DNA of 64,000 nucleotides, from assembly GCA_017499595.2 (NCBI GenBank), contig CM039010.1, forward strand, positions 1,860,001 to 1,924,000, read 5' to 3'. Shown piece after piece: positions 4,921 to 64,000 of the stretch. The stretch comes from Psilocybe cubensis (taxonomy: Eukaryota). Both the position numbers and the translations under genes were made by a program. A model generated the notes under the pieces. The model did no database searches, was not told where the DNA came from, and saw only the letters and a list, made by a program, of their open reading frames with translations. Numbering within the stretch: position 1 is the first letter of the stretch; the number at the start of each line of letters is the position of its first letter.

Positions 4921-4926
4921 CCTAAT

Positions 4927-7900: not shown

Positions 7901-7931
7901 GATATGTCAATGGAAGAGTCTTGTGGAGATA
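4927..7931 (+). pseudogene. Gypsy D pol, part 1 (RT, RNase H, integrase N-terminus)
   Basis: LPMGWTNS, PYIDDV, VVETDAKYL, HGPDGLSR, AHNHNGHR and CYRCQER, with many stops. Confidence 0.92.
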
Positions 7932-24916: not shown

Positions 24917-24924
24917 TGGTGCTT

Positions 24925-30453: not shown

Positions 30454-30454
30454 T

Positions 30455-40900: not shown

Positions 40901-42077
40901 CCAGAATGCTTCAAAGATATGTATTGCATCTGTGGTACTATATAGAGCATATCTACATACCTATATGTGCTGGAAATGGCCATTCTATCCCATAATAAAA
41001 TATACAAGTTCTGGAGGGAGTAGGGAGTAGTACCCTTAAATCTTGGAGTTGCACCAAGATTTTGGGCTCTAAAAATTAGTATAATAGATGCCTACCCAGC
41101 CCCAGTTAGGCCTAAATTTATCTGATCAGGAAGGCATTTATACGAGGGGTAGAAGGAGGGATAGGGTGCACATTCTAGTTCAGTAGGTTCCACTGCTCCA
41201 ATTAAGCTAAAACTTGGCATGTACTCTGTCTAATATAAATAAAAAAATAATGGCATAGTCAGAAGGGTGCATACCAACCCCTGGAGGGTGCTATTGAAGG
41301 TGCGCTTTTTGATCAAAACATTGTACGCTTAATTGCACAATAATGAGTAAAGATATTGCAATTTTGATTTCATATTTGGATTGGGACACCTTGAAACTAT
41401 AGGTTTACCAAAAAAGACCAAGGGAAACGGTCCAGAAATGCCCCCAAAAGCGCCCAATCCATTGCCAGCAATGCACAAAAGTAGCATAGGATGAGCATTA
41501 TTTATAGACCCAGGGGCCAAGATCAGAATGTCTATTTAATAATAGTTTTGATAGAGCTGATGGCAGGATCCAGAATTAGCCAGGGTTTTCCTGAATTGAT
41601 GGCATCATATCACAAATGACCAAGCACAGATAAGATACATGCTTATATCTAATCAAAAAGGAATGAATGATCTCATTCCAGCATGTGGTAACCTACAAGG
41701 AATGATATGATCTAGCATTTATTGCATTTCTATAGACTACAGTAGCCCTAATGATTTTGCTCTAGGGTATGGTAGCTTACAAGCAATGATATTATATAAT
41801 ATTTACTACTCTTCTGTGATTTACAATGATCTTAATGATCTGATTCCAGAATGTGGTAGCTTACAAGCAACTATATGATATCTTATTGACAAATTACTGT
41901 AGATTACAAGCCTTTTAATGATTTGCAATTACTTAGCTGTATTACAGTATTGAAAGATATATCATTTAGCTATAACTTATAGCAATAATCCATGATTTCA
42001 TATCATTAAAATGTGGTGAAAATGCACATCGCCATGTAGGCACTCAGCACATTATGATTGATTTAAGTGGCAGCTAC
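37986..42077. mobile_element. T2: non-coding foldback-like TIR element (~4.1 kb)
   Basis: Imperfect TIRs GTACCTACCACTTTA / GTAGCTGCCACTTAA in the palindromic target ACTAGT; internal inverted arms and a ~1056-bp tandem duplication. Confidence 0.8.
38099..38220. repeat. 21-22-bp tandem repeat, about six copies
   Basis: AAATCTGTATCATAGCTGCCC units. Confidence 0.9.
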
Positions 42078-45000
42078 TAGTGCAGAAGGAGCAGCGGCTT
42101 GAGCAACTGGAATTTGATCCAGTAGAAGGTTGTCAAGCGCGTTGTTAATAAAGACAATAGCGGCCCGATTGGAGGGAAGCCAGGGGTTGGCGTTGGTGGA
42201 ATTGGCGTGGGCGTTTGTGATACAAGCAAAGAACTTGGGGGGCATGATGAGGGAGTGATAAGAGGGTTAAAAAATTCAAAGTAAGAGCTCTTTTATAAGA
42301 GCTCTACAATAAAAATTTGGAGTGCGCCGCCATCAATAGTGAACTTGCTACCACAGAAACAACAGAAAAATCCTAAGTCAAAACTCACATGGCTTGTTGG
42401 CCGTACCCACAAATTAACTGAGTAATGATGTAGTGAATAGAAAACATAACATATGCTGTGCAATTAGAAGCACGTACTGCACCAGTCTGACAGAAGTCGA
42501 AATATCTTATAAAAGTTTATTACAATTAAGCTTTGGCCAGTTGCAAAGTATTAGCGCGCTCAGCTATGACGGGAAAATTTGATACACCCGTTATACCGTT
42601 GGAAAGAGGAGATCAACCGCTTTCTAATGGTACAAGAATCAGCAAATTTGAACCAGAATTGAGTACAGGAAGTACAAACAAAGTGCTTGCAATGCAGCGC
42701 AATACATCACATGGCTATGATGACACACGTCGGACATCAGATGCAACAGAATCCAGACCACGGCAATTGTTGGACACCAAGTACCGGTGCTGTGCAGTTG
42801 CTGGATATGGTGTAGAGTCACATGTGTGGACGCATCTCCTACCATATTAAGTAGTATGCTTAGGAGCCACAGCAAATAAGCATGCATACGAGCGCTTAAG
42901 CTGCAGAATTAAATAGAAAAATAGAATTAAACAGAATAGACAAACTTGACTACATTATCATGACACAGAATCAGCACACAAATTGGTTGAGAACAATGCT
43001 GAAAGAAGGAAAGAAGTCATAATTATACAGACAGGTTGACTGGAGACAGTCAATATCTAAGTTGGGGGGAGATGAAGAGACAAGGAATTGTCTACGCATG
43101 TAAATGCTGAATTTTTAGCATTTCTCATGTATACAAGTACACGCTCTTACGTACAAAGGACGGGAGAAACCATCTATTAGACGAGAATTATGATGTTGAA
43201 GGGTGTGTTGCCGCTATTGATATAGCTATACACAACTGGGTACAGAGTAATTTACGCCGAATCAGGACTACTATCTATAGTAGACATGCGTATGACAGCT
43301 GAGAACCTGGGGAAGCAACAGCAACGGTGAATAAGAGATCGTACACTAAGCGCTCTTACCGCTAGTACCTGATTAGGCATTACCTACCTAATGGGGACAA
43401 AACCTTGCTTAGTACCTTGAAGCTAGAATCGCATGTTCTCTGTAGGTTCTTGTGCATGATGAAATAAGCATCACATAGGTCCTAGACCTAGCGCGTGCTC
43501 AAGGCAAATTACAAACCTTAATTTATTGCACTCCGCGATGACCAACCAAAGATATTGAAGTAACCGTTACCAGACGGTATGACTAAGCCCTTGGCCTCAA
43601 GGCATCTATCCAAAACAGTATTGTACTCTCTAAGTGCTGCTACGCAGCGTTCTAGCAAGCCGGCATGTAAAGCCGACAGCCTGATGCTACCTGTATGCCA
43701 AGAGACGGAGAAATGAAGGAACAATTATTAAGAGCTCCTAGTCAGAATGAGTTGCCAGCTCGAGCGTACAATTGCACATTGCTGATGTAATCACTGACTT
43801 AGACAAATAAGAGCACTTATATGCTCGGATGAAGGAATGAAAACCACTGCCTTGCAAGTCTGACTTGCTATGCGCAGTAACCTTGTTACCAATTCTTGTT
43901 TGTATTGTATAATGTAATATTAGTTAGTCAGGTCTCCATTTCTCAGTAGTACTCATAGTATAAATTAAACCGTGTCATGTAGTGTAAGGACAAGCAATCT
44001 CATACCCAAGAATCGAGAGTACAGATTTAATCTGCATCTTCGCATTCCCCAGTGTGATCAATTGTTTCGCAGACGAGCTTGTTGTCTAAGAGAAGGAAGA
44101 CCGAGTGTAGTTTACCCGGATTTGAATATATAAGTGCTTTGGTTCATTAAGCGCTCTTGTATTGCAAGTCAAATATTCTGCACTTTCTAAGTTAATTCTT
44201 AGGAGGTGACCAGGGCAAGAGGCCACCGCCATAGGTCTGCCAGTTCTTCTTAGAGGGAAGAGCTTCTACACCGTTTTGTTTAGCCAAAAGGGTACCTGTG
44301 ACTTTGAGGGTTGCAGTTTCATATTGTCTGGGACTTCGAGGGTCTACCCACAAACTATAAGAAAACCTCATCTCTGAACGAGACTACTATACACCAAAGG
44401 GACTTAAAGGAAGCGTGTGTGTACACAAATCTAATAAGCGCTCTTACTTGCATTTGGCGATTGAGTTGAATTAGACTCTTACCAAGTGCAACGACGTGCA
44501 GCATAGTGCACATCATCCCACACATTAGTTCTTTTGAATGTGAAGCTTTTCTGTAGAGTGTATTAATAGCTCTGCTCTCCTCCCAGTAACAAACATTATT
44601 GTTGCAGCAATTGATTTGGAAATTGCACCGTCACCCCAAGCAAGACATATCAACGTTACCATTTGGCTGTTGATGCTGACTTAGTTCCATCAAAATTGAA
44701 CCACATCATCTAGCATATGGAATCTAGTAAAGTATTGAGGCATAGAGCAGCATTCTTAATTGCTTGAAGAAGACAACCTGGATAATGAACCAATATGGCA
44801 TTTGTCTAAATTTTCACAGATGGCTTTGACAATTCTTTTTGACTTTTCTTCAACTGCAACACACTGGACAGACCACTTAAACCATTTTGTACATCTTAGC
44901 TTTTAAGACAATTGGGGTTGTATTATTTGTTAGAACTTGATGCAGATGGCAAAGAAGATCTTGAGGCACGACCAAAGATATTCTATTGAGCTAGATAGTT

Positions 45001-46105
45001 TACATACATTTTTAATCTATCTTGTTGCTACAGAGCCAGTCCAATTCCCCTGAAAAATACCTTTTGGTTGCCCATTAGATAACATCATTTTTTGTGATTT
45101 TTCACGAAGATCTACCACAGGATTGGTCTTTTTTTCTTTGCTGGCCTTTCTTTAGGTGGCATTTTGTCAATTTTTTTTTGAGAAAACGGCTTGATAAAAT
45201 TTTTTGAAAATCTGGAATCATATATAATTCTTTGAGATCTATCCAAAAACAATATTTCCAAGATTTTAGCAAATTGTTTTGGATTTGGCAAAATTTTTGG
45301 GCCTATTTAAACTTAGAACCGGATTTCTGAGGGAAGTTTTTATGCAAACAAAAAACTAATTGCATATTCTAATTTGCATTTGCATCCTGCACGTTTCTAT
45401 CTATAATATATGGTGGCAGAAAAAATTTGATGTCTTCATGTGTCCCCAACTATAGTAACAGATAACAGTGCACCCTTTGTGGCAGCACTGAAGTGGATTA
45501 GTGACAAATATGGAATCAAAAGTATTAAGATATCACCTTATAATTCCAAAGCAAACAGCTTAATTGAGCAAGAGCATTAAGACATAAGACAAATGCTCTA
45601 TAAAATGCTAGAAAAAGAAAACATTCACAAATGGTTTTGGTTCTTAACCTTCATTTTCTGGGCAGACCAAGTCTTGATCAGATGGCAGATGGGCTGTTTG
45701 CCCTACTTTATGGTTACCGCTGCCCATCCAATCCTGCCACTAGACGTTAAGAAAGCCAGCTGGCTTGTCCAACCACCAGATAGACTGCTGATGGACTTGG
45801 AATTGGTAGCCTTTAGGGCACACGCACTGATAAAACACTGGTTGCACATAAACCAAATGAGAAAGAGAATGGATGAAGAAAAATATAGAAGACTATTTAA
45901 ATATGAGTCAGATAACAAAGTGGTTATCAAAGACTACACATTTGCACTGGGAGACTTGGTCCTGGTATGCAATACAATGGTAGAAGGTTCCTTGGACAGG
46001 AAAATGAAACCAAGGTACCTGGGACCAATGTTGGTAATTAGACAGACAAAGGGAGGGTCATACATTGTGTCAGAACTTAATGGTGCCATGTGGCAGTCTA
46101 AAGTA

Positions 46106-47710
46106 CAGTGGGCAAAAAAAACCGTTCGAGTGTTGGTCACGTATGAAAAGATTAATTTATAACTTTGAAATTAAAAATGTTAAAAATATGAGATTATTCA
46201 CAGATATACTATATGGTGTTAGCTAAAGGATGACACACTGATCATGTGATTTGTCCAAGAATTGACCAAACAGCAGCATACACAATTTGCTAAGTCATTT
46301 GAACAGTTTTTTTGCTAGTAATTTAAATGCTATAAACTATGTATTATCACATGACTTTGTTGATATACCAAACAACTATCAATAAAATCATGTGACTACA
46401 TGTTGAATAGGTATATAATAGCTACAACCAACCTCTTTATCCCCCAATCAAGCATGAAACCCCTCTCTAAAGCAACTATTGCTACTATTGTCTCTCTTCT
46501 TACTTTTGGTTACTCCTATGCCTCTATCAAGGCCCAGACTGGAGCTAGTACTGGTTCTATCACCAAGATTTGCCAAGACTACTGTCCTGAGGCAGTGGTT
46601 TCCCATGGAGGACGCCCAAAGAAGCTGACTGGTGCCAATATCACCTATACCAAGCGTGGAATTTGAACTGGACAAATCAAGAATGCTGTGCAAGCTGCCA
46701 AGTCTCTGGCTACTATTAATGGCCAGAATATCAGTCCTCAAACAGTTAGGAATGCACTCAAATCAACTGGCATGGTCTCAGTGGCAAAACAAAAGAAGCC
46801 TTTGTTATCAAAAAAGCATAGGAGGGCTAGATTGGAGTTTGCAGAAAGGCACTTGGAGTGGACTGTGGATGACTGGGCAAGGGTCTGGTGGTCAGATGAG
46901 ACCAAAATCAACAGATTGGGTTCAGATGGAAGAGATCAGGTGTGGATAGACAAGGAAAACAGACAGGACCCTAGGAGGATCAAGCAAACTGTGAAGTTTG
47001 GAGAAGGAAACTTGATGATGTGGGGTTGTATGGGATGGGAAGGAATTAGATTTGCCACTAGAATTGATGGGAAGATGGATGCTCAGTTATACACTGAGAT
47101 CCTAGGTGATGAGCTCCTAAAATCCTTGGAGTAGTATGGTCAACAGGTAAAAGATATCCACTTTCAGCAAGACAATGACCCCAAGCACACCTCAAAATTG
47201 GCCAAGAAATGGTTTGAAGAGCAGAATTTTAGGGTCCTCATATGGCCTGCACAATCTCCAGATCTCAACCCCATTGAACATCTATGGGAATACCTCAAAA
47301 GAAGACTTAATGAACATGAAGTCCCACCAAAGGGTATCCATGAACTTTAGGAGAGGGTTGAGAAGGAATGGAATGGAATACCCAAGGAAGTGGTGCAGAA
47401 TTTGATTGCTAGCATGCCTAGAAGGTGTGCAGCAGTGATTAAGGCCAAGGGTGGACATACAAAGTACTAGTAGATATGATTTATTGATACTCAAGTATTT
47501 AGCAAAAAAACTGTTTGAATGACTTAGCAGACTGTATATGCTCCTGTTTGGTCAATTCTTGGAAAAATCACATGATCAGTGTGCCATCCTTTAGCTAATA
47601 CCCTCTAGTATACCTGTGAATAATCTCATATTTTTAACATTTTTAATTTCAAAGTTATAAATTAATCTTTTCATACGTGACCAACACTCAAACAATTTTT
47701 TTGCCCACTG
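46106..47710 (+). mobile_element. Tc1 transposon, 1605 bp, ~210-bp TIRs, TA TSD
   Basis: TA|CAGTGGGCAAAA ... TTTGCCCACTG|TA. Confidence 0.97.
46454..47470 (+). pseudogene. DD34E Tc1 transposase (338 codons, three stops)
   Basis: [14 protein letters not shown] and [11 protein letters not shown], with 34 residues between the second D and the E. Confidence 0.95.
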
Positions 47711-49401
47711 TAGGTGCTTTCAGGATAGTACCATATTTTGCAAGAGAAAAGATTGCAGTACCTACAAAAATAACAGACATCCTAGATACTTCAGAAGAAG
47801 GATTGCAACAAATTGAAGCAGCACCCAAGGAAGACTATGTTGCCGCTCCAGAATGGGACATGACGCTGCTCCATAACAATGATAGTAAAGACGAGTAAAA
47901 TTTCACAAAAATACAAGACTGACAAACTACATGACATGTATTTCTACCTAAAACCTTGTAGAACGATGAAGTGAATCTAGACTGGGGCGCTGCCTTTGGC
48001 TTTGCAAAGCAAAGTGACCTATTTTTTGTTTTTATGACCAATGTGATTAAACTAGCATTGGGCAAAAGCACAACAGAACTTGAAATCAGCACAGTCAAGG
48101 CAAAGGAGTGCGAGAGCCTTCTCCACGACAGAGATAACCGGGTTACCACCTTGATTGGCAACTACAATAAGGACAACATCAATAGTGATACAAAAAATAG
48201 AGAATAGGTGATAGTAACAGCTTACCAGAGGGTTTAACACAAGGCTTCTTGCTGTTAGAGTCGATGCCAACCTCTTCAAAATCAATAAGAGTGACTTTAG
48301 CGCACTGTGTTAAAAACATATGGTTTAGTTTGAGAATGAGAGGTGAACAAGAAAAGAAACAAACCTTAGAACCATCATTCCCAATGGGGTTTGTACCTGG
48401 AATAGTGCAGATAGGTGGAGGGATGACAGAGGTAGGCACTAGTGGCTTGGCCAAAGGTGGGATGGGATTACCGGAATCCGTAATGATTTTGACAATGTCC
48501 TCATCAACTGACATGCCCTGCATACTGGCGATGAGTTTGTTGAATGACCATTTAGATGTGCGACATTGCTTTACCTCATTATTCTGCAGCATTAGTAAAG
48601 AATGGTGTGAGCTAGAAAAGAAATAAATATACTCATTTCCGAGTCAATGACAGCCTTGGACTTGGGTATCTTGCAAGTGCGCTGGCAATATGACACATTC
48701 CAGTTAGTTAGCAAAGAACCCAACAAACAATAGACTAGAAACAGACTTTGGCTTTGGCATGAGGAGTGACTGCAGAAGTGAGGGTGCTAGCAGCAGAGGG
48801 TGCCGGACCTGGTGCAGGAGGAGGAGCATTGGGAGCAATTACTGACACCGGCTTGCAAAACTGGTGAATGGCCTTGCACAAATTGGCGACAAAATAGTAC
48901 TCCCAGGGCATCTTGATAGTCCCGGAAACTTGTGCATTTTGAACGGCCTGGTAGTGTCAGAGTTTCTCCAGTTTCCCCTCTTTATCTTCCAGAATTATCT
49001 TATCCTTTCATTATCTTATCAATTATCTGATTAGATAGTTTATTTGTTTCATCACAGCCTTCTTGCTCCACTTCTTTCTAGTAAATTCTATATGATTCCT
49101 AGTCTTACTCATCCTTTTTCTATATGATGTCACTTTTATTCTTTAACCTTCCTTTATGATGTAATGTAGGGAATATTCTAGAATAGCTGTAGAGTATAAA
49201 TACTGGACTTGTAGGTAGCTGTAGCTTCAGCTTCAATCTCTTAGGATATCCACTATCATTGGTGTGATCTCTTAGAATTATTGAGTCTCTCTTACTCTCT
49301 TATTTTCTCTCTGCTCTCTTACTCTTACTCTGCTCTCTCTCTTTCTTGCTTGATCTTTGTTGGTGGCCTTGTAACACTGATTATAGTGTTGCCCTGACAG
49401 A

Positions 49402-49412
49402 AGATTGAAGCT
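49402..49412 (+). promoter_or_regulatory. Self-priming PBS (Tf1-type)
   Basis: AGATTGAAGCT is the reverse complement of AGCTTCAATCT (49229-49239), which lies just downstream of TATAAATA (49195-49202). Confidence 0.85.
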
Positions 49413-49889
49413 CTCTCAAGACAACTCCACCATCTCTCTTTCAACACCAAACTCTTCACCTCTTCAACCTCTTCAACATCATCACCTCAACCTTCTTCCT
49501 CCACTTCCAATCTACCAACTCCTTCACCAACCTCTTCACCAATCTCTTTACCAACCTCCACTTCTCCACCAACCTTCAACATCTTCCTCAAGACCTTTCC
49601 TCAAGACCTTTGGCTCATCATCTTTCCTACTCTCTGTTGTGTGCTGTGTGTGAACTTAGTAGATAGGGATACCAATTGTTGGGGCAGACACAGTCCTACT
49701 AGTGTTCTGTTTTTGGTGGTCTAGGAAATATCCAGTAATCCTGTGATCCTAGATTTAGAGCCCTGAGTGGTGTGACAACTGGGTATCCAGTAGATAGATA
49801 TTTTTTTTAGAGTACTTAGTATAATTTCAAGAGCACTTTCAGTAGACAGCTTCTCCCACACACACACATCAGAGAGCCTACCCCTACCC

Positions 49890-50993
49890 ATGGACATGGA
49901 CCCCTCCCAATTGCCTCCCACCTCTCTTTCTGTGGAAGAGCTCATGCATCAGGTCCAGCTCCTTACCCAAGAGTTGAATTTTCTTAGACAACAGCAGCAG
50001 TCATCATCTACTCCACCACACCCTCAGCAACCAGTCAGTCAGTCACCATCATCACCACCACCTACTGCTCTAGATATTCACTCTTTCCCTACCCCTCATG
50101 TTGCCCCTTCCTGTTCACACTCTGTCATTAAAGTCTCACCTCCAGATCCATTTGATGGTTCTATGGAGAAGGCAGAAAACTTCCTCAGTCAGTTCAAATT
50201 ATATTTCTATGGGAAAGGGATTACAAATGACTTTCAGAAAGTTATTTGTGCTCTATCTCATATGAAAGGAGGTACTGCTGGGAAGTGGGCATATGAGAAG
50301 ACTAAAGTAATAGACAATGCTCAGTCCCAAGAAGGTCTTTGGGCTGACTTTGTTTATGAATTTAGGGAAGTGTTTGCAGATCCAGACCCCTCCAACACAG
50401 CTAAGCATAAAATGCACATGCTTAAGCAAGGCAGGCAGACTGCTGATGAGTATGTTGTTAGCTTCAGGGCTCTGATCTCAGATACTGGGTATAATGATGC
50501 TGCTTTGGTAGACCAATTCAAGGCTGGGCTCAATGAAAATCTCAGGAATGCAGTCTACTATGTTCCTGACATGCCCAAAACCTTGGATGGATGGATTAAA
50601 TGGAGTACTAGGCTAGATAGGCAGTGGAGACAGAGTGAGGCCTTTACCAAGTCTCTTTCCTCCTCCTCCTCTTCTTCTCCCTTCCTTAAAGCCCCAACTC
50701 CCAAGGCTGTTCCTAAGCCTACTCCAAATCCTCCAGTCTTTTCCAACAGCAGCTCAAGGACCTTTGGTGCTCAGGCAAAGCAACCAGATGTAGTTTCCAT
50801 GGAGGTTGACTCTGGATGGAAGTCAGTTAGGCCAATTGTTTGCTTCAAGTACAGAAAGCCTGGTCATAAGGCTGTAAACTGCAGGTCATTAGTTAACATC
50901 AATGCTATGACCCATGAAGAACTGGCTGACTACTTTGGGAAATTAATCTTGGAAGGAAAGGAGCAGAAAGATGAGGAAAAGAAAAAATTTTAG
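49890..50993 (+). CDS. C2 Gag, open 367-aa ORF with a Cys>Tyr change in the knuckle
   Basis: Intact ORF; CFKYRKPGH versus CFKCRKPGH in C1. Confidence 0.9.
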   Translation: MDMDPSQLPPTSLSVEELMHQVQLLTQELNFLRQQQQSSSTPPHPQQPVSQSPSSPPPTALDIHSFPTPHVAPSCSHSVIKVSPPDPFDGSMEKAENFLSQFKLYFYGKGITNDFQKVICALSHMKGGTAGKWAYEKTKVIDNAQSQEGLWADFVYEFREVFADPDPSNTAKHKMHMLKQGRQTADEYVVSFRALISDTGYNDAALVDQFKAGLNENLRNAVYYVPDMPKTLDGWIKWSTRLDRQWRQSEAFTKSLSSSSSSSPFLKAPTPKAVPKPTPNPPVFSNSSSRTFGAQAKQPDVVSMEVDSGWKSVRPIVCFKYRKPGHKAVNCRSLVNINAMTHEELADYFGKLILEGKEQKDEEKKKF

Positions 50994-51001
50994 AAGCACC
51001 A

Positions 51002-54000
51002 TTGGTGAAAGACATGTCCCAATGGAATAGATTTAATGTACTAGAAAATGAAAATGACAGACTTGATCCTCAGTCTTCAGATTCTGGTGCAGAAATCATG
51101 TCTTCTTCTTCCTCTCTTTCTACCTTCCCTGAAAAGATCTACATCCTCAACCATAATCCTAAAACCTCTACCCATTTGTCTGTCATCTTAAAGACAATGG
51201 ACACAGAGAAAAGGTTATCTGTTGATGCTTTGCTTGATTCTGGAGCTACTGGCCTCTTTCTGCATTCTGGTTTTGTGAAGTATCATAATCTCAACACAAG
51301 AAAACTTCCTAGAGCCATTCCAGTCTATAATGTTGATGGTACTCTCAACAAGAGTGGCTCTATCCATGAGGAAGTAGACTTAATTATGGTATACAAGAAC
51401 CATACAGAAAGGGCCACCTTTGCTGTTTGTGACTTAGGAGACAAATCTGCTATCATTGGACATACTTGGCTTTGGCACCATAATCCAGATGTTGATTGGA
51501 AGACAGGGGATGTTCAGTTTATTAGATGTCCCTCTGACTGCCAAATGGAAGCCAAAAAAGCCAGAAGAAAGAGGCAGAGAATAGCTGCAGTCAAAAGGAG
51601 GAAACTCCCTCAATTTAATGAAGAAGGAGATGATTCTATTGAAGATTCTTCTGATTCTGAGATTGAGCCTGAGGACAGAATTTTTATCTCATATCTTCAT
51701 CCTCAGAAGCAGTCTATTAATGCTACTTCTACTATGTCTCAAAGATTAGCAGAAAAGTCTCATCAGCAAGCTGATTCCCCTAAGAAAACCTTTGAAGAAA
51801 CTGTTCCTAAGCACTATCATCAGTTTAAAGGTGTTTTTTCAAAAGAATCTTTTGATAGGCTACCAGACAGAAAGCCTTGGGATCATGCTATTGAGCTGAA
51901 ACCTGGTTCTGAACCTTACAAATCCAAGATTTATCCTCTTTCTCTCAATGAACAAAAGGAACTTGATGCCTTTTTAGAGGAAAATCTGAAATCTGGCAGG
52001 ATTAGACTCTCCAAGTCACCTATGGCCTCCTCTATATTCTTTGTCAAGAAGAAGGATGGATCTCTTAGGCTTGTCCAGGACTATAAGAAACTAAATGAAA
52101 TGACCATCAAGAACTCCTACCCCCTTCCATTGATTTCTGACATTATCACCAAACTCAGCAAAGCCAAATACTTCACCAAACTTGATGTTAGGTGGGGATT
52201 TAACAATGTCAGAATCAAAAAGGGAGATGAATGGAAAGCAGCCTTTAGAACCAATAGAGGGCTGTTTGAACCATTGGTCATGTTCTTTGGTTTAACCAAT
52301 AGTCCTGCTACCTTCCAAACTATGATGAATGATATCTTTATTGAGCTCATTGATGGAAATGTTGTCATTGTCTACATGGATGATATTTTAATTTTCACTG
52401 AGACTCTTGATCATTATAGAGAGGTAGTCAAGCAAGTTCTGCAAATCCTAGAACAGAACAAACTCTACCTTAAAGCAGAGAAATGTGAATTTGAAAAGGA
52501 AAAGATTGAATATCTTGGACTAATCATTTCACAAGGCAGGATTGAGATGGATCCTGTCAAGGTAGAGGGAGTTTCTAAATGGCCTGAACCTGAAAATGTC
52601 AAGGATGTCCAATCATTCTTGGGATTTGTTAATTTTTATAGAAGGTTCATAGAGGATTTTGCAGACATTGCTAAGCCTCTTCATGAATTGACAAAGAAAG
52701 GAACAGTCTGGAAATGGAGTCTTAGACAGCAGGAAGCCTTTGAAGGACCCGGGAAGCTCCCCTAAGGCCTTGTCCGGGGTTTGGCGGATTTGAGGCCGAA
52801 AAAAGGCCAAATCCCTGTCCGTTTTTCGCGGATTTAAGGGCGCCGCAGGCCAACCATTGTCCGGGGCCTGCGGATTTGAGGCCGGGTCCACAGCCTGAGG
52901 TGGCCAGCGGCAGTCAGATTTTCTTTTATTTACACAAATTCATTCACATACATTATCTAGTTACCAGATGAGGAATTTATGGACGGACATGACTCAGACG
53001 ACGATGATGCTGATGCATCAACCCCCGTGCCGGACTTCACTTGTATACCACATCCACCACGAAGGAAATACTACCTCCACACTCATGCACGAGTTAGCGA
53101 CGTTATATACAACCTTGGCTCTTGTGCACTTCATGGTGAATATCACTCAAAGAAAACTCTTAGTCCTCAGGGAGCTTTCTTGTGGAGAAAGTTTGCTAGA
53201 TCAAATATTCAGAAGGCCATTGGTAAAGCCAACGAGTCACTACTCAAAATACGTATTCCTGGTAGGAAGACATTGTAATTAGTACTTATCTCTTTCTCTC
53301 AATGTGTATTATGACTGCGAGACGCTGTTTAAAGCAAAATATTGTTAAAAACGAGGTGGAGAAATGTGCTGCCCCGCAGGGAGAAAATTTCTTAATTAGG
53401 AAGGACCCTGAGGAGGTCTGTCCGGTTTCGCGGATTTGAGGCCCCAAATCTCGCGGATTTGAGGGCCAAATTCGGGGTCGAGGCCGGACAAGGCCTTAGG
53501 GGAGCTTCCCGGGTCCTGCCTTTGACCAGTTAAAGAAGAAAGTCACTTCTTCACCTGTTTTGATTTTCCCTAATGATAACAAGCCATATAAAGTTGAAGC
53601 AGACAGTTCAGATTATGCTACTGGGGCTGTTTTATCTCAGGAAGGATCAGATGGGAAATGGCATCCTGTAGCCTTTATGTCTAAGAGTCTATCTGAAGTA
53701 GAAAGGAATTATGAGATCCATGACAAAGAGATGCTGGCTATTATCAGAGCACTAGATGAATAAAGACATTATCTTGAAGGAACCCAACATTCCTTTGAGA
53801 TTTGGACAGACCACAAAAACTTAGAGTACTTTATGGTTGCCCAAAAGCTCAGCAGAAGGCAAGCCAGATGGTCACTCTTTCTGTCCAGATTTGATTTTAC
53901 TCTTCATCATAGGCCTGGTAAAAGATCTCTCAAGCCAGATGCTTTGTCTAGGAGACCAGATCATAAAAAGGGGGAGAATGATAACCAAAATGTAGTTCTC

Positions 54001-55336
54001 CTTAAACCTTCCTACTTTAAAATCCAGGCTCTCAAGCAGGGTCATGCTACCATTACTGGTGCAGAAAATGATCTTCTTAAGAAGATTAGAGAAGCTAAGG
54101 AGATGGATGAAAAGGTGGTCAAGGCAGTTCAGGAGCTCAAGAAATCTTCTACCAAGAAGATTGAAGGACAGGAATGGTCAGAAGAACAAGGTCTTATTCT
54201 CTACAGGGGGAAGGTGTATGTTCCCAAGGACAAAGATCTTAGAAGAAAAATTGTGGAACTGCACCATGATGCCTTCATTGCTGAACATCCAGGGAAATGG
54301 AAGACAATTGAGCTAGTCTCTAGGAATTATTGGTGGCCAGGAATGTCACATTTTATTGCAGCCTATACCAGAGGTTGTGATAGATGCAACAGAACCAAAA
54401 CATTCCCAGCCAAACCTCTTGGCCTTTTAATTCCTACTGAGATTCTCTCTGATGTCTGGCAATGCATTTCTGTGGACTTTATTATGGGGTTACCAGAATG
54501 TCAAGGGTATAATGCCATTATGGTGGTTGTGGATAGACTTAGTAAAATGATCCACATTATCCCTACTACAGATGAAGTCACTTCTGAAGGGACAGCCAGA
54601 CTATACAGAGATTATGTCTGGAAACACCATGGCTTACCCATTAAAATTCTGTGTGATAGAGGTCCACAGTTTGTCTCAAGGTTTATGAAAGAACTCAACT
54701 CAATACTTGGTATCCAGACAGCCTCATCTACAGCCTACCATCCCCAAACTGATGGTTAGACTGAAAGAGTTAACCAAGAAATTGAGCAGTATCTTAGACT
54801 CTTTATAAACCATAGACAAGATGATTGGGTTGAATGGTTAGCTCTACCTGAATTCTCTTATAACAATAGAGTTCAGGCTTCAACCAGGCAGACACCATTC
54901 ATGCTCAATAATGGCAGACATCCCAGAATGGGCACTGAACCCCTTAGAGATAGTAAAATGGACACTGTGGATACCTTTGTGAAAAATATGGAAGAAGCCA
55001 GAAAAGAAGCAGAGTCTGCACTTAGAAAAGCTGCTAATAATATGGCTAAATTCTATAATAGACACAGAGGTACTCCAACTCAGTACAAAGTTGGAGATTT
55101 GGTATGGTTGGATGGCAAGGACCTCAAAACTGATAGGCCCTCCAAGAAATTGGATGATAAAAGATTATGGGCCTTACAAAATTACCAAAGTTATTAGCCC
55201 TAATGCCTATAAGCTTAAACTGCCATCTACCATGAAAATCCATCCAGTGTTCAATGTGGTTAAACTTCTACCTTATCACCCAGATATTGTAGGAAGAAAG
55301 CCTCCTTCTAGACCACCTCCTGTCACTCAAGGAGAA
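51002..55336 (+). pseudogene. C2 pol, interrupted by the 8-bp-TSD element; its chromodomain is inverted to 62134-62428
   Basis: Collinear with C1 pol; stops at 53761 and 54757. Confidence 0.93.
52744..53517. mobile_element. 774-bp non-autonomous TIR element with an 8-bp TSD
   Basis: Perfect 34-bp TIR AGGACCCGGGAAGCTCCCCTAAGGCCTTGTCCGG; TSD GCCTTTGA; C1 shows the empty site. Confidence 0.96.
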
Positions 55337-56585
55337 TATCTTCTGTCAGGGCAACACTATAATCAGTGTGACAAGGCCACCAACAAAGATCAAGCAAGAA
55401 AGAGAGAGAGCAGAGGAAGAGTAAGAGAGCAGGGAGAAAATAAGAGAGTGAGAGAAACTCAATGATTCTAAGAGATCATACCAATGATAGTGGATATCCT
55501 AAGAGATTGAAGCTAAAGCTACAGCTACCTACAAGTCCAGTATTTATACTCTACAGCTATTCTAGAATATTCCCTACATTACATCATAAAGGAAGGTTAA
55601 AGAATAAAAGTGACATCATATAGAAAAAGGATGAGTAAGACTAGGAATCATATAGAATTTACTAGAAAGAAGTGGAGCAAGAAGGCTGTGATGAAAGAAA
55701 TAAACTATCTAATCAGATAATTGATAAGATAATGAAAGGATAAGATACATCAGCAAAAGTGACCAAGTCCCCAAATGCCTTGTCAAGGCATTTGGAGGCG
55801 ACCAAATGCCCCAAGGCCCAAATGGCCTTTTAGATTGACTAATTAGAGACTCGGAATTTTGAAATGCTTTAAATCATTCAATAAACCCAATGTTTTAGCT
55901 AGATCTAAATTTAATTACGAGTCTTTACGTAAGTAAAGATGAGTTCTTTTATCCCCACAACCCAGCGAGCAAAAATGTCCTCGCCAATTGTCCCCATCAA
56001 AATATTATTGATGCGATCAATGTTGTTACCGCTATCGGTATTTTCCTTAAGCGGTCACCGGACCCCCTAAGCAACCCCTTTCCAATTCATTCTACGACTT
56101 CTTTTTACCATTGGTTACTTTAAAGGTTGTTTTTGATTTGTTTTGATCGCAATGTGAATGTGCGTTTCTATAAAATTAATTATACCCAACAACAATAGTC
56201 CTACTCAATTCACTTTTTTGCGTAGTTGTTTAATTTTTAAAACCATGTGGAACCGTCTAGACAACGTGCTTATATATTGTACTAATACTTAGAGATGGAA
56301 CAAATGCACTCTTTGAACTATGGGTCTGAAAGGTTGGAAATAGAACTGTGCAGGCACACACGTTCCTTGATATTGGTAGCTTCATCAATCAGAGTTCAAA
56401 TAGAAATAATTACGCGTTCTTGGGTTCTGGGCATTCTGTACTATTTGAATTTGATTTTCTGATTCATGATCGTTTCTCACGCATACCAATTTGTTCTTCC
56501 CCTATGTCGGGCGTCTATCGGCTTACAGTTAATATATTTATTGACGTAGTATAGACAATGCACTTTTCTCCGCACTGTTTTACCC

Positions 56586-59422
56586 ATGGCTTCCGCGTTA
56601 TCCCCCCGTTTCCAACAGTATGTTCACTGTTTTATCTCATTTGGTTATTACTTATTTTTTAGAGTCTTTCCGCCTCCCATGGACAATGTGTACATGGATC
56701 AGATGGATCTGAAAACCCTCTACCGTTTCTCTTGGACTTGCAAGGAGCTAAATGACCGCGTTTCGGGCTATATGCGCCGCGCCTTCCATCCCAAAAATTT
56801 ATTTGCTCCTATCTTCAAACCCAATGAACATTTGCTGTTTCGTCTTCTCCAGTTCAAGACTGGCCTGGTTATTTCAGGTTCCACCGTTTTGCATTTTACT
56901 TGTTTTAGTGGTCCAACGCAAAGCGTGGCATGACAAGACTTTACATCTCACAATTGTATAAAATATTTTTTAATCTAGATTTATATAACATAGTTAATAT
57001 ATATTAATATGTTCTGAATGCACAGCCAGATACTGGGCAAGGTTATGATTAATTACTATGACTTAGGTCTACTACAAGCTTAGTTGTGTCAGACACAAAA
57101 AATAGCTGCACAGGTTATAAGGCCTAATTGTAAGGAAGAACTTGTCTATTATAATTTTCATACCTGCTAAATATTGAAGAATTCCAAATCTGCTGGGAGA
57201 ATCCCGTATGGAAAACTGATGGAAGAATGCTCATGTGTATGGCTGCCCAAGTGGGGACATATTTCCCATAAATATAATTTTCTTATTTTTGAAAAGTGCA
57301 TCAAGAGTGAAACAATATTGTGTGCAAAAACATTTGTTTGGTGCGCATATTTCTTTTTGGTATAGTTTGATGTTGCTGTGAACACAATTGGCTGTGTGGA
57401 AACATATTTCAAGCATAATTTGCAAGTGTTAGTGCATTATTTCTTCCCCAAAATACATTCAATGCATGGAAATCATTATTCAAAATGACCATCTCTTGAC
57501 CAAAGTGGCCAGTGCTCAATGCAAATTGAGTGTAGTGACCGTGGGAATATCCTGCGTACAGTGTGCGCAGGATATTCCCACGACCTGCTTATTAATTCAC
57601 GGCCAGTACAAACACCACAGCAAGTAAAATATAATAAGATCATCTAAACTAGGACTGAAAATAATTATTATTGCCAAAAATACTTGTATTTTACCTAAAG
57701 TATATGCAATGCATCTCAGTAATATATCAGGAATTACCAGAGAAGTTCAAGTTGCTCAATGCAAAGTGCGGCAACCATGAGAATAACTTGCATACACTAT
57801 ATGCAAGTTATTCCCACAGTCTGCTTATTAATTCATGGCCAGTATGAACAGCACAACAAGTTTAATATGACAAGTTATTTGAAGTGGCATTAAAGATAAT
57901 AGCTAGATACATAATGTTTATTATTCTTTATTCTATGCCACCACAGTCTGCTAGTCATTCATGCTAAATTTTTTTTGATAACAATAAAGCATTCTATTTA
58001 CCTCTACTTGCCGTTAGAGGTGTATAAAGCATGCAAAACAGTTGGTATGTAATTGATTGTGACTAATTAATGGCCTTAAATCAGTTGAATGAGGTTATTA
58101 TTATAAAATTTTTGGTTATGAGCGATGATTATCTGCGTCAAAATGTTTAACTTGCAATTAAAAAGTCATAATGTAATGGTATCTAATTTTGTTTTCTACC
58201 ATATGGCAGCTAACCTATCTACCTAGCTAATATCTAGTATTTTAATTTCCATATCCCCTTGGTAGGAACAAAAACTAACAGAAATTCTATGATAGTAACC
58301 AATTATTAAGTCAAGCATACCGGTTAAGTAAAAAACCGGTATTAATCACGCAATTTTGATGGCATCAATGATTTACTGATGGGGACAATTGGCAAGGACA
58401 TATTTTTGTACAGTGGGTTGTGGGGATAAAAGAACTCGCTTTACTTACATAAAGTTTCGTAATCAATCGTGCTAATATATGGATTCCGGGTGACATGGAC
58501 ATGTATGTCGAGCACAGATAAACATCCTCTTCATCGACATTACAATACCACTGGAGTGGTCGTTAACCTATGGTGCCAAGGTTCTTTTGTCCAACTGATT
58601 ACGACTTATCAATCGGTGGTAGAGTGCATTTTGGGGTATCATAGCAGTATGTCCCCAATATCATGTGTCAAAACAATGTTAACTTCAATTTTGTTCTACT
58701 GCAGCCGGCGTCATGAATTTTGTTACCTTTGAGAAGGTGTACAGCTTGTATCCAAATGCTACCTTTGGACATCAAGTCTCTCTGTTGCAACCTTCTGCCG
58801 ATCTCAAGCGCGCGCAAAAATTTCTTGCAAAATATCATTCCCGTGGCTTGAAATTTGTTCTTTCCATTCCATTGCAAACTTTGAAAATGGACCGCCATAT
58901 CCAAAGCAGGATACAGTCTATCAGGGACAACGTAAATGTTGGGTATAGTTCATCTCGTGGTCATGTTCTCGTTGTGCTGGATTACGATCCTTATCTAGAG
59001 TTGTTCTCTCCTGGGATTAGACGGGTTGGCGACAGGCATTGTTGGGTTTATTCTTTGCCTCTTTTACCCAAAGCAAATCAGACTTTCTTTGTTGAAGCCA
59101 ATTCGTGGGCATTGTTGCTCAATGAATTTGATTGTTTGCATTTTGGTGTCCATTGCATCAGCAGTATCGCATTAGATTTTCACTACACAGCGGCAGATGT
59201 TTACCAATTACACAAGCGTGTCAAAAAAGCTATCAAATCCTGGGAAAGGGGTATAAGGTGTGTGCTCTTTAGTTTTAGTATTTGTCAACTTAATTCCTAT
59301 AATGTAGGCAAAAAGATGACCGTGTACATGCAACTGTTTTGTATTTGCTATCCAGAAAGGCAGATATTTTTTGGTTGCATCGCCCTCAACCACAAAGCCT
59401 CTTGTGGAATGGATATTTGTAA
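56586..59422 (+). pseudogene. F-box-like / Pol-beta nucleotidyltransferase-like protein, split by H2
   Basis: N-terminal MDLKTLYRFSWTCK; excising H2 gives ISGSTVLHF-IPGDMDMYVE; later VQLI..ILGYHS, VMNF..YSLYP and RRVGD..W. Confidence 0.65.
56899..58483 (-). mobile_element. Helitron-like derivative H2, nested in inverted orientation in H1
   Basis: Minus strand A|TCCATATATTAG ... GCCACGCTTTGCGTTGGACCACTAAAACAAG|T; inserted between A and T with no TSD. Confidence 0.82.
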
Positions 59423-59519
59423 TTTCTTCCATCCTTAGTCAAATTTTTGTTCGAAATAAACTTGTGTTCTCGTCCTCATTCTTTTTGTCTTAATTTGTAA
59501 GTTTGACTTGCGGATGAGC

Positions 59520-59699
59520 GTGGGAATATCTTGCGTACAGTGTACGCAGAATATTCCCACGGTCAACCTCTCCCGATATTCAGCCGAGTGTGGGAATATT
59601 CTGCGTACAGTGTACGCAGAATTCTCCCACGGACTTCCTTGCCGATATTCAGCCGAGTGTGGGAATATTCTGCGTACACTGTACGCAGGATTCTCCCAT
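59520..59699. repeat. Three 41-bp palindromes in ~70-bp tandem units
   Basis: Consensus GTGGGAATATTCTGCGTACA-G-TGTACGCAGAATATTCCCAC at 59520, 59590 and 59659; related copies at 57541 and 57777. Confidence 0.93.
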
Positions 59700-59845
59700 G
59701 GGGTGCCAACTAACACCTTCAGATAATTTCCTGTCATGAAAATGACTTGACAAATTATTCCTTGTTATTTACAATGTTCACGCAAATGGATTAATTGTTC
59801 GTTCAGCACATTTATGATATCCTTGTCTTTCTATGTACATATGTA

Positions 59846-60820
59846 TTAATCTTGGGACATAGTATTGCTATTGTGGACTGTGTCCTCATTTAAGCGCATA
59901 CGTGCCATCCTCTGTTGCGTGTCTTCAATGTCAATCTGACCTTTGTACAGCTGCCTCTTTGTCCTACACAAAACAGCAACCTATCTTTTCGCTGGAGTAT
60001 AGCGCGACCGCATTCTGAGAATATCAGCTTTCTGTTGGAAGTTATGAATAGCTATGAGACTGTTCAATGTAACATTGCTTACCTCTCTTGCCTCCTGGTC
60101 CAAGACAAGTATTCCGCAAAGAGCAACAACAAATTTGTACTTGTTTCCTTGGGCAGGAAATGCGACAAAGGCAACACTGATCTCGACAATGTCTCCAATT
60201 CGTATGGAGGCAGGATTATAAGAATAATATCTGTTGCAACATGATATTAGTTTGGTTGTGATGTGTTGTTGGTATTTTCTAAACATACCTGGCTGTTCCG
60301 TCAGGAAGTATCTCCCGACAAAGAAACTGTACCTTGTTATCGATTGCGTGGATGAAACTGTCCCCTACCATGGACGCCAACACGTTATCAGGGTCGACCA
60401 GGGGATGAAAATCTATGTTGTCAGATTTGTCTTGATATGCGGATACCTTCGTGAAATATTGGCTATGTGCATGGAAAACATTGAAACCCGTGTCTTTGTG
60501 AAGAACTGGGTCATAGCCGCTGACGCTGTCCGCGGGAAAATTGTTTGCAAAACGGAGGAAAACTTCTTCTAGCTTTTCCATCACCTTATTGAACACAATG
60601 TCTCCGAGTCCCGTGATAGCAATGGCGGTACGTAAATATGGTTGTTGCTTGACCGTTCTGTCGCGGCTGTAACAGTCCTCATTTGTAATTAATTCACCTC
60701 AATGGAGTGGACGTACAAAGCAGGCTTTGCCATTGGTGGTAGCATCTTGTCGCTAACTATGCCTTGGAGTCTGAATATCACTTCGTCCATTGCACCGATA
60801 TCCACGTCAAAGTTGGACAT
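59846..60820 (-). CDS. Spliced hypothetical protein, possibly an OB-fold ssDNA-binding protein
   Basis: MSNFDVD..EVIFRLQGIV..LPP, VDPDNVL and PASIRIGDIVEISVAF..LCGILVLD; short introns. The fold is inferred from a beta-rich pattern. Confidence 0.5.
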
Positions 60821-62965
60821 ATTTATATTATATTATATATATATTATATTATTACAAAGCGTGACGCTGAATCGTAAAGACTCGTCATGCCACGCTCCGC
60901 GGTGGCCCACTAAAACAAGTCAAATCATTTGGGTAAAATTTGGGAGACCCAAAAACATTTGGATAACATTTAAATTGCATTTGAGAGCCCTGAGAACATT
61001 TAGGGTTCACCCAATATTGACACAATGATATATTTTGCATATTTCTACTCCTGGCAGCCACTTCAGGTGTTCACACAATAGGATGTAGTAATTCAATTAA
61101 AATATTATTGAAAGATATTCAAACAAAAGAGGGTACACAGAAATGACTGAAAGAAAGCGGATTCAAGTTCATTAGTGGTACAATCTGGGCGCTGGGAAAA
61201 CATGACGGAGTCACGTGATTGAATTGATGCGCTACAAGATCTACACTGGTTGATGAGTCACGGTCAAGTAAATGTAAATATATGCGCATATACGTACCAA
61301 TAAGTTGACCAGAATGGGTGTCTGGTTATCAGATACACTCTAGAGAAAGAAGTAATCAAGGCAGATGAAGAAAAAGCCATAAAAAGGTATAAAATAGTCA
61401 GTCAGGATGGTATGATGAAAAAGAGAGCATGTCTCTCACCTTTTCAGCTCTATACCAGTCTTGAAGGGCCAAAAAAGAGGCATGGAAGTATTAAGTGAAA
61501 CTAGAGAGCGCCGTCATCAGAGTGGTGGAAATGAAAGGGTAGAAAGAAAGCGACTTGGGCGTGTCTCAGATTATTATGCTCAAAACGGATATTTAGTCTC
61601 CAATTTAATTTGTCAGAGGAGACGGCCTCTCTAATTTGTATTTCTTGAAGTCAAATTTCTCACGTACATGTAATTCTTATGACAATGGTGTCGTATTGGA
61701 AACAACCTGCCCACGTCATAGGTATTACATGTGGTCAGTTAAATTTTCCATACCTAAATCATTTTGAACATATTTGAAGCCCTTTAATCATCAGTGTCAA
61801 CAAAAAGTTAAACTCAATGTTTTATTCTTTGTTTTTATTTTTAATCAATTGTTCCCTGCAAGTTTTATGGCAAACAAATTATTAAGAAATAAATGTAAGT
61901 ACATGGAATATTTTGTACTGAACTTTGAGGTGTATAAATGTTTGTGGAGCATTCAAATGCTCTCCAAATGTTTTGTGCACCTCCAAATTTTAGTGAAATG
62001 TTTTTGTGTGATTTAACCTGTCACGCAAAACATTGACCTGCTTAAAAAGGCACAAAAGGCATTTGGGGATCTTGTCACTTTTGCCGATGTAATTCTGTGA
62101 AGATAAAGAGGGGAAACTGGAGAAATCCTGACATCACGCCCTCTCTAAGGCACATTTTCCACAATGTGCATATGGATGGGTTAGTTTAGAGGGTTTAAGA
62201 AGAGGAGAAGGTTCAGTAAAGTTAATAATAGGAATGAAAGAAAGTCTATCAAAGGTCACAGCAGAAATCCTTCTAGGTGCTGAAGGGTGTTTGGCATGGA
62301 AGTCCTTGATAGCCTTAGAAACATTTTTCAAGTGCTCTGCAGGCTCCCAAGTGCATTCTTCATTAGGATAGTTCTTCCACTTGACCAAATATTGAAGTTT
62401 GTTTCTAAAAAGTCTGCTGTCCTTGATACATAGTGTTGCCCTGACAGGTAGATGCCGTGAATCTTGAAAACGGCATTGCAGCAGTCCTGGCGCGGACCGA
62501 TGGTGTCAGCGCGCTAGTTTGGCTCCTGAATAAAGATGTGACAAAGAGATATAATTAGCTATGAGTAAAAACAATGAAGTAGAAACAAGAAGAAAACGTA
62601 CCATAACTTAAACAGCGCGGTTGAGAATACCAAAGATAATAGGCGCCTGGTCTTTGTCTTGCACAGCGGATGTATTGACGATAGTTAAAGGGATGAAAAT
62701 CATTGCCCAAACACTGTCGGTGATGGGAATAAGAGGGTCGGCAGTATTGACAGTTGACATGATGCAAAAGAAGTTAGAAGGCAAGAAGCTATCAGAGGGC
62801 GATGCTGTTAGTCCAGCCAAAAATAACAGTTATTTATATGGACTGGCAATGTGCAGACTTAGCAGGAATCAGTGCAAATATATTTGTGCTTTGATAGCCA
62901 AATCCACTAAGTGACAAGGATAGGAGGCTGACTAAGAACAGTCAGGTGCTTTAGTTTGGGGGAAA

Positions 62966-63844
62966 TAATGTGTGTGCACACATGATAGCTGTAGAAACGT
63001 GGATATGACTGTAAAAGCAAAACAAGCAGAGAGAAATATGAAATAACTGAGATAAGGCTTACCAAAGTAAACAACACAAGCTTAACAAGGCAGAAAACAA
63101 GGGAAATCTCACAGAGTATCATGAACAACAAACTGAGAGAAAGGCTAGTCTGGATAGTTGGTAACAAAGCATATACGTAATAGTGCAAAAAAGGCAGCCT
63201 CAGTTATAAAAATAGAATTTACTGCTTGATTAGTCAGTTAATGTGTGCAAAAGTGCATGATAATAACAAACTCAGCCCCTGAAAGACAAGGCACCAGACT
63301 GATAAACAAGAATGCAGGATCCTGGTCACGGTATACAGAATGGACGAGCAGGCAGGCCAAGCTCAGTAATGGATAAGTGCCCAGCAGAGTCATTTCCAAT
63401 AGTGCCAGTTAAACCAATATCCAAGTACAATCAGTATGTCGAGTATTTCAGGGTAAAATCCTATAAATACAGCTCAAGGAGGGAGCTGAGAGGAAGCATT
63501 ATACCTGCGATTCTTTGAACAAATTAGTGTAAAGTTTTGAGATATAATATTAAAGTCCCAGAGCTAAGTAAGAGTTAAAAGTTCAGTAGTCAAGCAAAGT
63601 GATAAGTCAGCCAGTTCAAAAGGAGACTAGAGCACTTATACTTGAGATTTAGAATTAGTCTATTAAAATCCAATATATCTTAAAACCCTAACCAAATCCC
63701 TCAAACAACTTAAATTACTATACAAATCAAACCCTTAAAAACCTGTATACGTTATTAGAATTGTGATACCAATACTTTAGTAACTTTGCCATATACAAAT
63801 TGTGTGTGTGTAATTTTACTACGTAAAACATTACAATCTTATCA
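62966..63844 (+). repeat. Probable 3' LTR of Gypsy D
   Basis: Follows a hairpin and PPT (TTTGGGGGAAA) arranged as in B and ends ATCTTATCA. No partner LTR is available to confirm it. Confidence 0.55.
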
Positions 63845-64000
63845 TTGTGACAAGATTACCCAGATAGAATGGATTATTATAATCAAAATATCCGCCAGAC
63901 ACTCCGTCCGGCGGACAGCACATGACCCACGTGACCACCGCGGTGGTGAAATTGACATGTTAGTTTTCACCACTGAAGTAGTCAAATCCGACATATAAGT

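Follow-up and report, generated by a model that had tools for sequence, protein, structure and literature searches.

The 64-kb window of Psilocybe cubensis DNA analyzed here carries two retrotransposons, B and D, each with an additional gene on the antisense strand behind pol (Table 1). In element D this is a broken six-exon gene reading from 62760 to 47977 and located, as in B, between the integrase stop and the polypurine tract (PPT). A nested chromovirus-type Gypsy element (family C), which itself has an inverted inner stretch (55343-62430) and carries two DNA-transposon-like inserts, splits the gene and accounts for 13.5 kb of this 14.8-kb interval. The D copy of the antisense gene is dead.

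Table 1. Features of elements B and D in the window (positions within the 64-kb stretch).
Feature	Position	Strand	Remarks
D pol, RT-RNase H-start of integrase	4891..7961	+	Degenerate; collinear with residues 2-1033 of L039 pol; RNase H Pfam match
Element B	27710..44650	+	LTR match 93.5% over 1199 nt; dispersed 12-bp near-palindrome throughout
B homologous antisense gene	36967..42245	-	Four introns, two in-frame stops; split by CACTA-like insert 37981-42083
B motif 3	in exon starting 37193	-
B motif 2 (KSKAIAEDS)	about 37812-37786	-
B motif 1	about 37971-37921	-
D integrase, remainder	45431..47898	+	Pol residues 1021-1299; Tc1/mariner insert at 46106-47710
D antisense exon 6	47977..48161	-	Coiled-coil helix; two in-frame stops; final stop 47977
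D motif 3	about 48177-48136	-
D last intron	48225-48162	-	Acceptor identical in database gene model P0004
D antisense exon 5	48226..48304	-	Best-conserved module (hydrophobic-Tyr/Phe..Gly followed by basic patch), shorter in D
D antisense exon 4	48365..48583	-	Short helix, conserved Met-x-Val-Asp motif, linker
D antisense exon 3	48637..48681	-	Conserved Lys-Ser-Lys + acidic motif (motif 2); donor of following intron non-canonical
D motif 2 (KSKAVIDS)	about 48663-48640	-
D antisense exon 2, second part	48747..48949	-	Last helix of four-helix domain (motif 1), Pro/Ala linker
D motif 1	about 48908-48855	-
Nested family C element in D exon 2	48955..62446	+	5-bp target duplication GGTAG; not part of accessory gene
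D antisense exon 2, first part	62447..62525	-	One in-frame stop; cut by nested element
D intron 1	62601-62526	-	76 nt, GT..CAG, phase 0; place of intron 1 in L039, L041, L042 and L043
D antisense exon 1	62602..62760	-	ATG at 62760; one in-frame stop
D hairpin and PPT	62930..62966	+	Clade-typical, as in full-length relatives; 3' LTR would begin directly after
D putative 3' LTR	62961-63850

The pol gene of D has the order RT-RNase H-integrase and remains collinear with residues 2-1299 of the pol of the related family L039 across a 37.5-kb nest; these features, an RT_RNaseH match and the hairpin with PPT agree with a Ty3/Gypsy element. No gag, protease or 5' LTR was found in the 25 kb upstream of the D RT, while the relatives L042 and L043 possess LTR pairs. 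The putative 3' LTR of D gave no blastn match to the B LTRs or to the rest of the window, in agreement with an earlier note that had judged the two sets of LTRs unrelated by eye.

The same note proposed that the antisense genes of B and D are homologous, given their equal position and orientation and three collinear motif resemblances. The placement indeed agrees: in D about 80 nt separate the integrase stop from the antisense stop behind it, in B about 100 nt separate the pol stop (36867) from it, and both genes start internal to the PPT (about 62952-62966 in D, about 43058-43070 in B). All six peptides are present and collinear on the minus strand, but the third pair is only partly coding, since five residues of D motif 3 fall in the last intron, and this resemblance is thus accidental. 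A better fourth match, which had been overlooked, lies in the exon preceding that intron. Compared directly, B and D are no more similar than expected by chance (tblastx best E 0.35; Smith-Waterman score 45, reached by 18 of 300 shuffles), and the homology is borne out through other families instead: a profile from four other families of this genome, with B and D left out, scores 42.7 bits for B (E 2e-15) and 119.9 bits for D, against 2.3 and 3.4 bits for the best of 500 shuffles each. Profiles from each family's own copies were impossible here, as the B and D genes each turned up once in DNA searches of the genome. Significant profile similarity was nevertheless found when disjoint B-like and D-like groups were compared with hhalign (99.0%, E 2.4e-18), a comparison that is partly circular.

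Six families of this genome carry the antisense gene. Introns 2-4 are in phase 0 in all of them and the last intron is in phase 1 in five out of six. The frame is open over 335, 353 and 356 codons in L039, L041 and L042, respectively (the L039 gene model is letter-for-letter identical to a database model), while the D, B and L043 copies are broken. Its conservation across related families is gene-like. In one pair (L041/L043), pS is 0.81 versus a pN of 0.27, a sign of purifying selection. Nine Agaricales genera contain homologues; of 20 homologues looked up, 15 have an organism name, and all 15 are from Agaricales. Word-index protein searches gave two to four proteins among the matches listed. 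Among metagenome relatives 46 out of 80 loci matched, always in antisense (controls at most 2.8 bits), and the viral contigs searched contained no relative. That only the antisense RNA matters, or that a captured host gene is decaying neutrally, is already disfavoured and in our view highly improbable: the three broken copies would suit this explanation, yet synonymous sites are saturated with 60% of residues kept, open frames and intron phases are kept across families, and all matches obtained with three queries in this genome fall inside these elements.

In pol trees made with FastTree only, the six carrier families group in a single clade (support 0.995), far from the chromovirus-type element C, with a sister clade that lacks the gene. 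For comparison, the Ylt1-like lineage is defined by grouping with Ylt1 in an RT/integrase tree (PMC2864245). The PPT follows pol after 22-475 nt in the sister families versus 1509-1742 nt in the carriers. We are nearly certain that the antisense gene encodes an accessory protein acquired once by a non-chromoviral Gypsy clade of agaric mushrooms and inherited with pol. The suggestion of an old, retained, clade-level accessory protein is therefore supported by profile homology, common introns, a single pol clade with a gene-less sister, selection on the frame, and homologues in agarics and metagenome elements. The sister clade does without the gene, as CpG content fails to separate the two groups (observed/expected 0.85-0.96 in intact carriers, 0.98-1.05 in sister families).

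Neither the D nor the B integrase has a tail of chromodomain length; both stop a little beyond the SH3-like part. The antisense protein might therefore act as an adaptor for integration targeting or nuclear import, holding the pre-integration complex to chromatin in place of the chromodomain absent from the clade; its bivalent architecture with a basic patch and the location of the carriers in nests of other elements are in line with this. We consider such a role quite unlikely, as the sister clade has similar integrases yet no such gene, and the protein changes far faster than the integrase (34-38% versus 68-70% identity), which is unexpected for a tight partner.

The protein is predicted to consist of an N-terminal four-helix bundle (pLDDT about 90), acidic and basic motifs, and a C-terminal helix of 45 residues modelled as an antiparallel dimer. 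Conserved basic residues are found in the helix bundle, in addition to the conserved basic patch. The dimer model scores 0.61 (best control 0.00), a mark reached by 21 out of 30 solved homodimers and none of 23 monomers (17 out of 29 and 0 out of 30 for eukaryotes), although a coiled-coil dimer may pass through likeness to solved coiled coils. Between runs, at least 70% of the contacts are the same, and the pLDDT is at least 68. For 26 proteins, Pfam gave nothing near the cut-off and no known DNA-binding or chromatin domain. Sequences of solved structures gave a best E of 0.02 and no assignment, Foldseek gave no hit under E 0.001 against the PDB and viral models, and VIA found generic helical bundles only (best Z 9.1, rmsd 6.4). 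In the ESM Atlas, protein P0001 had no usable match and P0012 a best score of 0.79, which is a lead only. A zinc-cluster (Zn2Cys6-like) reading was rejected, the six-cysteine cluster being absent: intact proteins have three cysteines each, without a cluster, and one conserved Cys/Thr column only. A possible likeness of the Lys-Ser-Lys/acidic motif to CK2-phosphorylated motifs of chromatin factors found no backing in a literature search, which returned an unrelated peptide.

As selection has kept the gene, the elements probably make their own regulator; our best reading, held tentatively, is a protein that acts in the nucleus as a dimer and regulates the chromatin or transcription of its own element. 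VANC and the nuclear Grande GENE23, both described below, are precedents for this reading. The earlier note suggested a silencing suppressor or a targeting factor; the predicted anatomy fits a nuclear dimeric regulator, and nothing in it singles out integrase targeting. The element can carry an intron-rich, host-style gene presumably because introns in antisense escape the splicing of the genomic RNA and would survive reverse transcription. TATA-like boxes upstream of the ATG make an own promoter near the PPT/3' LTR the probable start of transcription. The protein would most likely work in trans in the nucleus as a homodimer, with the C-terminal helix forming an antiparallel coiled coil and the basic patch serving nuclear import. 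The fast-evolving four-helix domain may recognize DNA or chromatin of the element, and a host chromatin or transcription factor may be recruited by the Lys-Ser-Lys/acidic motif, so that the element's own family would be kept transcribed or unmethylated.

The same nuclear dimer anatomy is compatible with the opposite outcome, a self-limiting factor: the protein and the overlapping antisense RNA would hold down transcription or particle assembly of the element itself, as retroviral antisense regulators do, and would be kept since a restrained element survives longer. Transcription in antisense can contribute to silencing (PMC7264820), and the carrier families are low-copy in this genome (one or two copies each). 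We regard this as unlikely, since the gene-less sister families are low-copy as well. In a bZIP protein such as HTLV-1 HBZ, a parallel zipper follows the basic region at a constant distance; here the spacer varies by tens of residues and the model is antiparallel, so a bZIP reading was rejected and the likeness to such a regulator is weakened. AP-1-like sites are not enriched near the putative promoter.

Element B contains a dispersed palindrome (TAAGAGCGCTTA-like) scattered through the LTRs and even pol, and other families have other palindromes. Such family-specific palindromes are strong in B and several metagenome carriers. In this genome they are above the null in one out of six carrier families, with D and the three intact ones not among them, and also in the gene-less L049; the link between palindrome and gene is inconsistent across families. 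Each family's protein dimer could recognize its own palindrome, protein and motif co-evolving in a sequence-specific anti-silencing system, which a fungal LTR retrotransposon clade would have evolved in convergence with plant VANC; we find this conceivable but doubtful. VANC proteins are anti-silencing proteins of Arabidopsis VANDAL elements, which are Mutator-like DNA transposons; they bind a short family-specific motif and bring about demethylation, and their motifs form non-coding, same-orientation arrays (PMC5735166). The likeness, as a model of how the protein works, lies in a fast-evolving element-encoded protein and family-specific short motifs within the element. In contrast to VANC, the host here is an LTR retrotransposon and the motifs are dispersed palindromes, present also in pol and missing in most carriers; no sequence link between VANC and the antisense protein was found.

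A variant of the B palindrome is present in both orientations, a better fit to double-stranded DNA than to RNA, which speaks against a Rev-like helper that would aid the intron-less genomic RNA in export, translation or packaging. Intron-less transcripts are reported to accumulate poorly in basidiomycetes (PMC3744415, PMC7017817), so the long unspliced genomic RNA could need help, and a basic patch with an oligomerization helix would suit this task. With no RNA-binding fold found by Pfam, Foldseek or VIA, and gene-less relatives managing without, we rate the helper role as distinctly improbable.

The layout of an antisense gene behind pol is already known. As described in the works citing it (PMC7264820, PMC8365987), brtn of the Boty-like Gypsy elements of Botrytis cinerea and Sclerotinia (Zhao et al., 2011) is an extra antisense gene of unknown function in the interval from pol to the 3' LTR. 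The Agaricales gene shares this location in a fungal Gypsy element, whereas the host of brtn is an ascomycete element; the two were compared by description only. Plant antisense ORFs share the place and strand, a non-chromoviral Gypsy host, lineage-wide retention and a proposed nuclear regulatory role (Grande GENE23 is nuclear and has its own promoter; PMC7264820), but differ from the gene described here, whose introns, four to five in number, are short, fungal and kept at the same places. No match to TRP28 (PF04195, Retand antisense ORFs) was obtained at E 0.1 in the 26 proteins, nor any to SMC, and we did not find a description of this protein family. What antisense accessory genes do for LTR retrotransposons is still to be settled in both plants and fungi. 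The question can be put to the test here in a culturable mushroom, with a defined protein family, carriers that are intact, a sister clade of the same genome that lacks the gene and serves as a natural control, and motifs that are candidate targets. Lying in antisense would allow a retroelement to retain introns for long periods, and many “hypothetical proteins” of agaric genome annotations are transposon cargo.

The window, part of contig C13 in a genome of 46.6 Mb and 21 contigs, is a nest of transposons, with the non-chromoviral Gypsy element D stretched across all of it. By alignment, the pol of D is collinear with that of an intact relative in two parts 37.5 kb apart, and the inserts between them include elements A and B (B also being non-chromoviral Gypsy). 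No gag or 5' LTR of D was found upstream of its pol. The hairpin directly before the polypurine tract (PPT) of D is conserved in relatives with and without an antisense gene.

B and D each carry an antisense gene that stops about 80-100 nt past the pol stop and starts inside the PPT, in agreement with an earlier note that had described the same position and orientation in both. The six peptides compared there were all found, on the minus strand and in the order claimed, but in the third motif five of the D residues are intronic. The D gene comprises six exons, one of them interrupted by a 13.5-kb nested element; it contains four in-frame stops, one of its donors is non-canonical, and a database model of its 3' part agrees with ours on the acceptor. 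The B gene is divided by four introns, contains two stops and is split by a CACTA-like insert.

Features of the nest (positions in the window)
Position	Strand	Feature
4891-7961		D pol, first part
19892-20111		12/24-nt tandem array
21046-26956		Family C element (chromovirus-type Gypsy)
27710-44650		Element B
29223-30182		LINE-type element, 3' end
37981-42083		DNA-transposon-like insert, terminal inverted repeats
45431-47883		D pol, second part
46106-47710		DNA-transposon-like insert, terminal inverted repeats
62760-62602, 62525-48747, 48681-48637, 48583-48365, 48304-48226, 48161-47977	minus	D antisense gene, exons
48955-62446		Family C copy, nested in exon 2 of D antisense gene
52746-53517		DNA-transposon-like insert, terminal inverted repeats
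55343-62430		Inner inversion of family C copy
55757-62089		DNA-transposon-like insert, terminal inverted repeats
57524-59701		Repeated near-palindromes in preceding insert
58683-59438		251-codon frame in same insert
62930-62945		Hairpin before D PPT
62952-62966 (about)		D PPT

The antisense genes of B and D are real, homologous and clade-wide. Compared directly, they show no significant similarity (tblastx best E 0.35; Smith-Waterman score 45, matched by 18 of 300 shuffles). Relatives were gathered through the integrase, independently of the antisense gene (43 genome matches, 20 of these retrieved), and four families (L039/L040, L041, L042 and L043) have a predicted spliced antisense gene at the corresponding position. 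In three of them the frames are open (335, 353 and 356 codons) and the introns, 46-79 nt long, have GT-AG or GC-AG borders; the L039 model is identical to a database model that is annotated as a hypothetical protein (Psilocybe cubensis). The profile built from just these four families, leaving out B and D, scores B at 42.7 bits (E 2.3e-15) and D at 119.9 bits (E 7.8e-39), against 2.3 and 3.4 bits for the best of 500 shuffles each, which bears out the homology proposed earlier. All six families have introns 2-4 in phase 0, and five have the last intron in phase 1, L042 being without it; intron places match to within a few residues (B up to about ten off), and exon 1 has no equivalent in the B model. 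The HMM-HMM comparison suggested with the original claim, between disjoint B-like and D-like groups, gave 99.0% (E 2.4e-18, 203 columns) and is partly circular, since outside members were recruited by a profile containing B and D. Three queries run against this genome matched only inside these elements.

In a pol tree (24 elements, FastTree, 940 columns), the six families carrying the gene form one clade (support 0.995) with B as first branch and weak inner support. Their sister clade, L044-L050 (support 1.0), yielded no match to the antisense profile. The PPT or its hairpin follows pol by 22-475 nt in six of the seven sister loci (no PPT was seen in L047) and by 1509-1742 nt in carriers. The integrase-only tree fits both a loss of the gene in the sister clade and its absence there from the start.

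The antisense gene is one inherited, selected protein gene with predicted splicing. Between L041 and L043 its synonymous sites are saturated (pS 0.81) at a pN of 0.27, which indicates selection on the protein frame; the integrase end (pS 0.71, pN 0.10) implies that the antisense protein changes at about three times the rate of integrase. It is thus very improbable that the locus acts through antisense RNA only or is neutral cargo. A full HMMER search of 1.84 billion representatives yielded 26 proteins with E no higher than 0.001, of which 21 were new. An organism name is attached to 15 of the 20 homologues checked, which are known as protein records rather than from genomic context, and the nine genera (Psilocybe, Agrocybe, Panaeolus, Hebeloma, Galerina, Laccaria, Lentinula, Rhodocollybia and Desarmillaria) all belong to Agaricales. 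Metagenomes were also scanned with the integrase of the clade, a search confined to the ingroup. Of the best 80 of 126 loci, 46 scored at least 16 bits with the antisense profile (19 of 31 clusters at 90%), including 39 of the 55 that have 1.5 kb or more downstream. All matches are on the minus strand behind the integrase, controls (sense strand and 208 kb of upstream sequence) reached at most 2.8 bits, and splice places are similar in three loci examined by eye.

No Pfam family came near its cut-off in the 26 proteins, and solved structures included no convincing relative. AlphaFold2 (25 sequences) predicts a four-helix bundle near the N-terminus (about residues 11-115, with a pLDDT of about 90) and a C-terminal helix of 45 residues, as well as disordered linkers and a small module around 240-270; fold searches with the models found generic bundles only. 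Among 57 aligned segments, the bundle conserves Phe-x-x-Arg-x-x-Tyr and Pro..Tyr..Val..Lys-x-Ile..Arg, and other conserved columns form Lys-Ser-Lys followed by acidic residues, Met-x-Val-Asp, Tyr..Val-Pro-Gly..Lys-Ala and a Lys-x-x-Arg patch. Residues 236-335 were modelled as an antiparallel homodimer with a score of 0.61 (best control 0.00), although a coiled coil may pass through its resemblance to coiled coils already solved. Runs share at least 70% of contacts (pLDDT at least 68), and the mark is reached by 21/30 solved homodimers and 0/23 monomers (eukaryotes, 17/29 and 0/30).

Dispersed palindromes are real. A 12-bp near-palindrome, when up to one mismatch is allowed, recurs at 15 distinct sites where 0.18 would be expected, all inside B, in both orientations and in LTRs, pol and antisense gene. 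At two mismatches the window holds 30 sites, of which 28 belong to B proper and two to its inserts; five of eight exact copies genome-wide are in B. In a palindrome test, eight of 37 sequences exceeded all 24 simulated nulls: B, the gene-less L049, four metagenome carriers and two sequences whose status is uncertain. This is no frequency, as the 20 metagenome loci were chosen partly for motifs already seen. L130, L114, L065 and L076 (metagenome) each have their own, different palindrome, and L049 has 29 TTCGAA sites in a 16-kb stretch, all within the element. D, L039, L041, L042 and L043 have none above the null. As a lead only, the palindromes are candidate targets of the antisense protein.

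For the function of the protein we infer, tentatively and at somewhat under an even chance, a nuclear antiparallel dimer that would recognise its own element and recruit a host factor, so keeping the element active. The gene would be transcribed from its own promoter near the PPT, and its introns would survive reverse transcription through their antisense orientation; passages in PMC3744415 and PMC7017817 indicate that introns favour expression in basidiomycetes. Against the nuclear dimer, no known binding domain was found in the protein, palindrome motifs are inconsistent among carriers, and CpG content is equal in intact carriers and gene-less relatives. As rival roles of the protein, self-restraint of the element, integration targeting and help at the RNA level are each unlikely, their likelihood falling slightly in that order. 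The layout is already known; the protein family is apparently undescribed, with no description of it in mushrooms in the literature searched (subscription journals, Repbase entries and supplements excluded).

The inner inversion of the family C copy makes its LTRs look inverted, while outer ends and 5-bp target duplication are normal. The other family C element is nearly CpG-free (observed/expected 0.01), another way round methylation. The LINE-type fragment, in B's leader, contains RNase H (weak Pfam match) and a Cys/His motif, and the tandem array is Pro/Ala/His-rich. L039 and L040 (G000:C2:91001-110300) are tandem, near-identical elements 9277 nt apart, with two differences in 6.4 kb and apparently one LTR in common.
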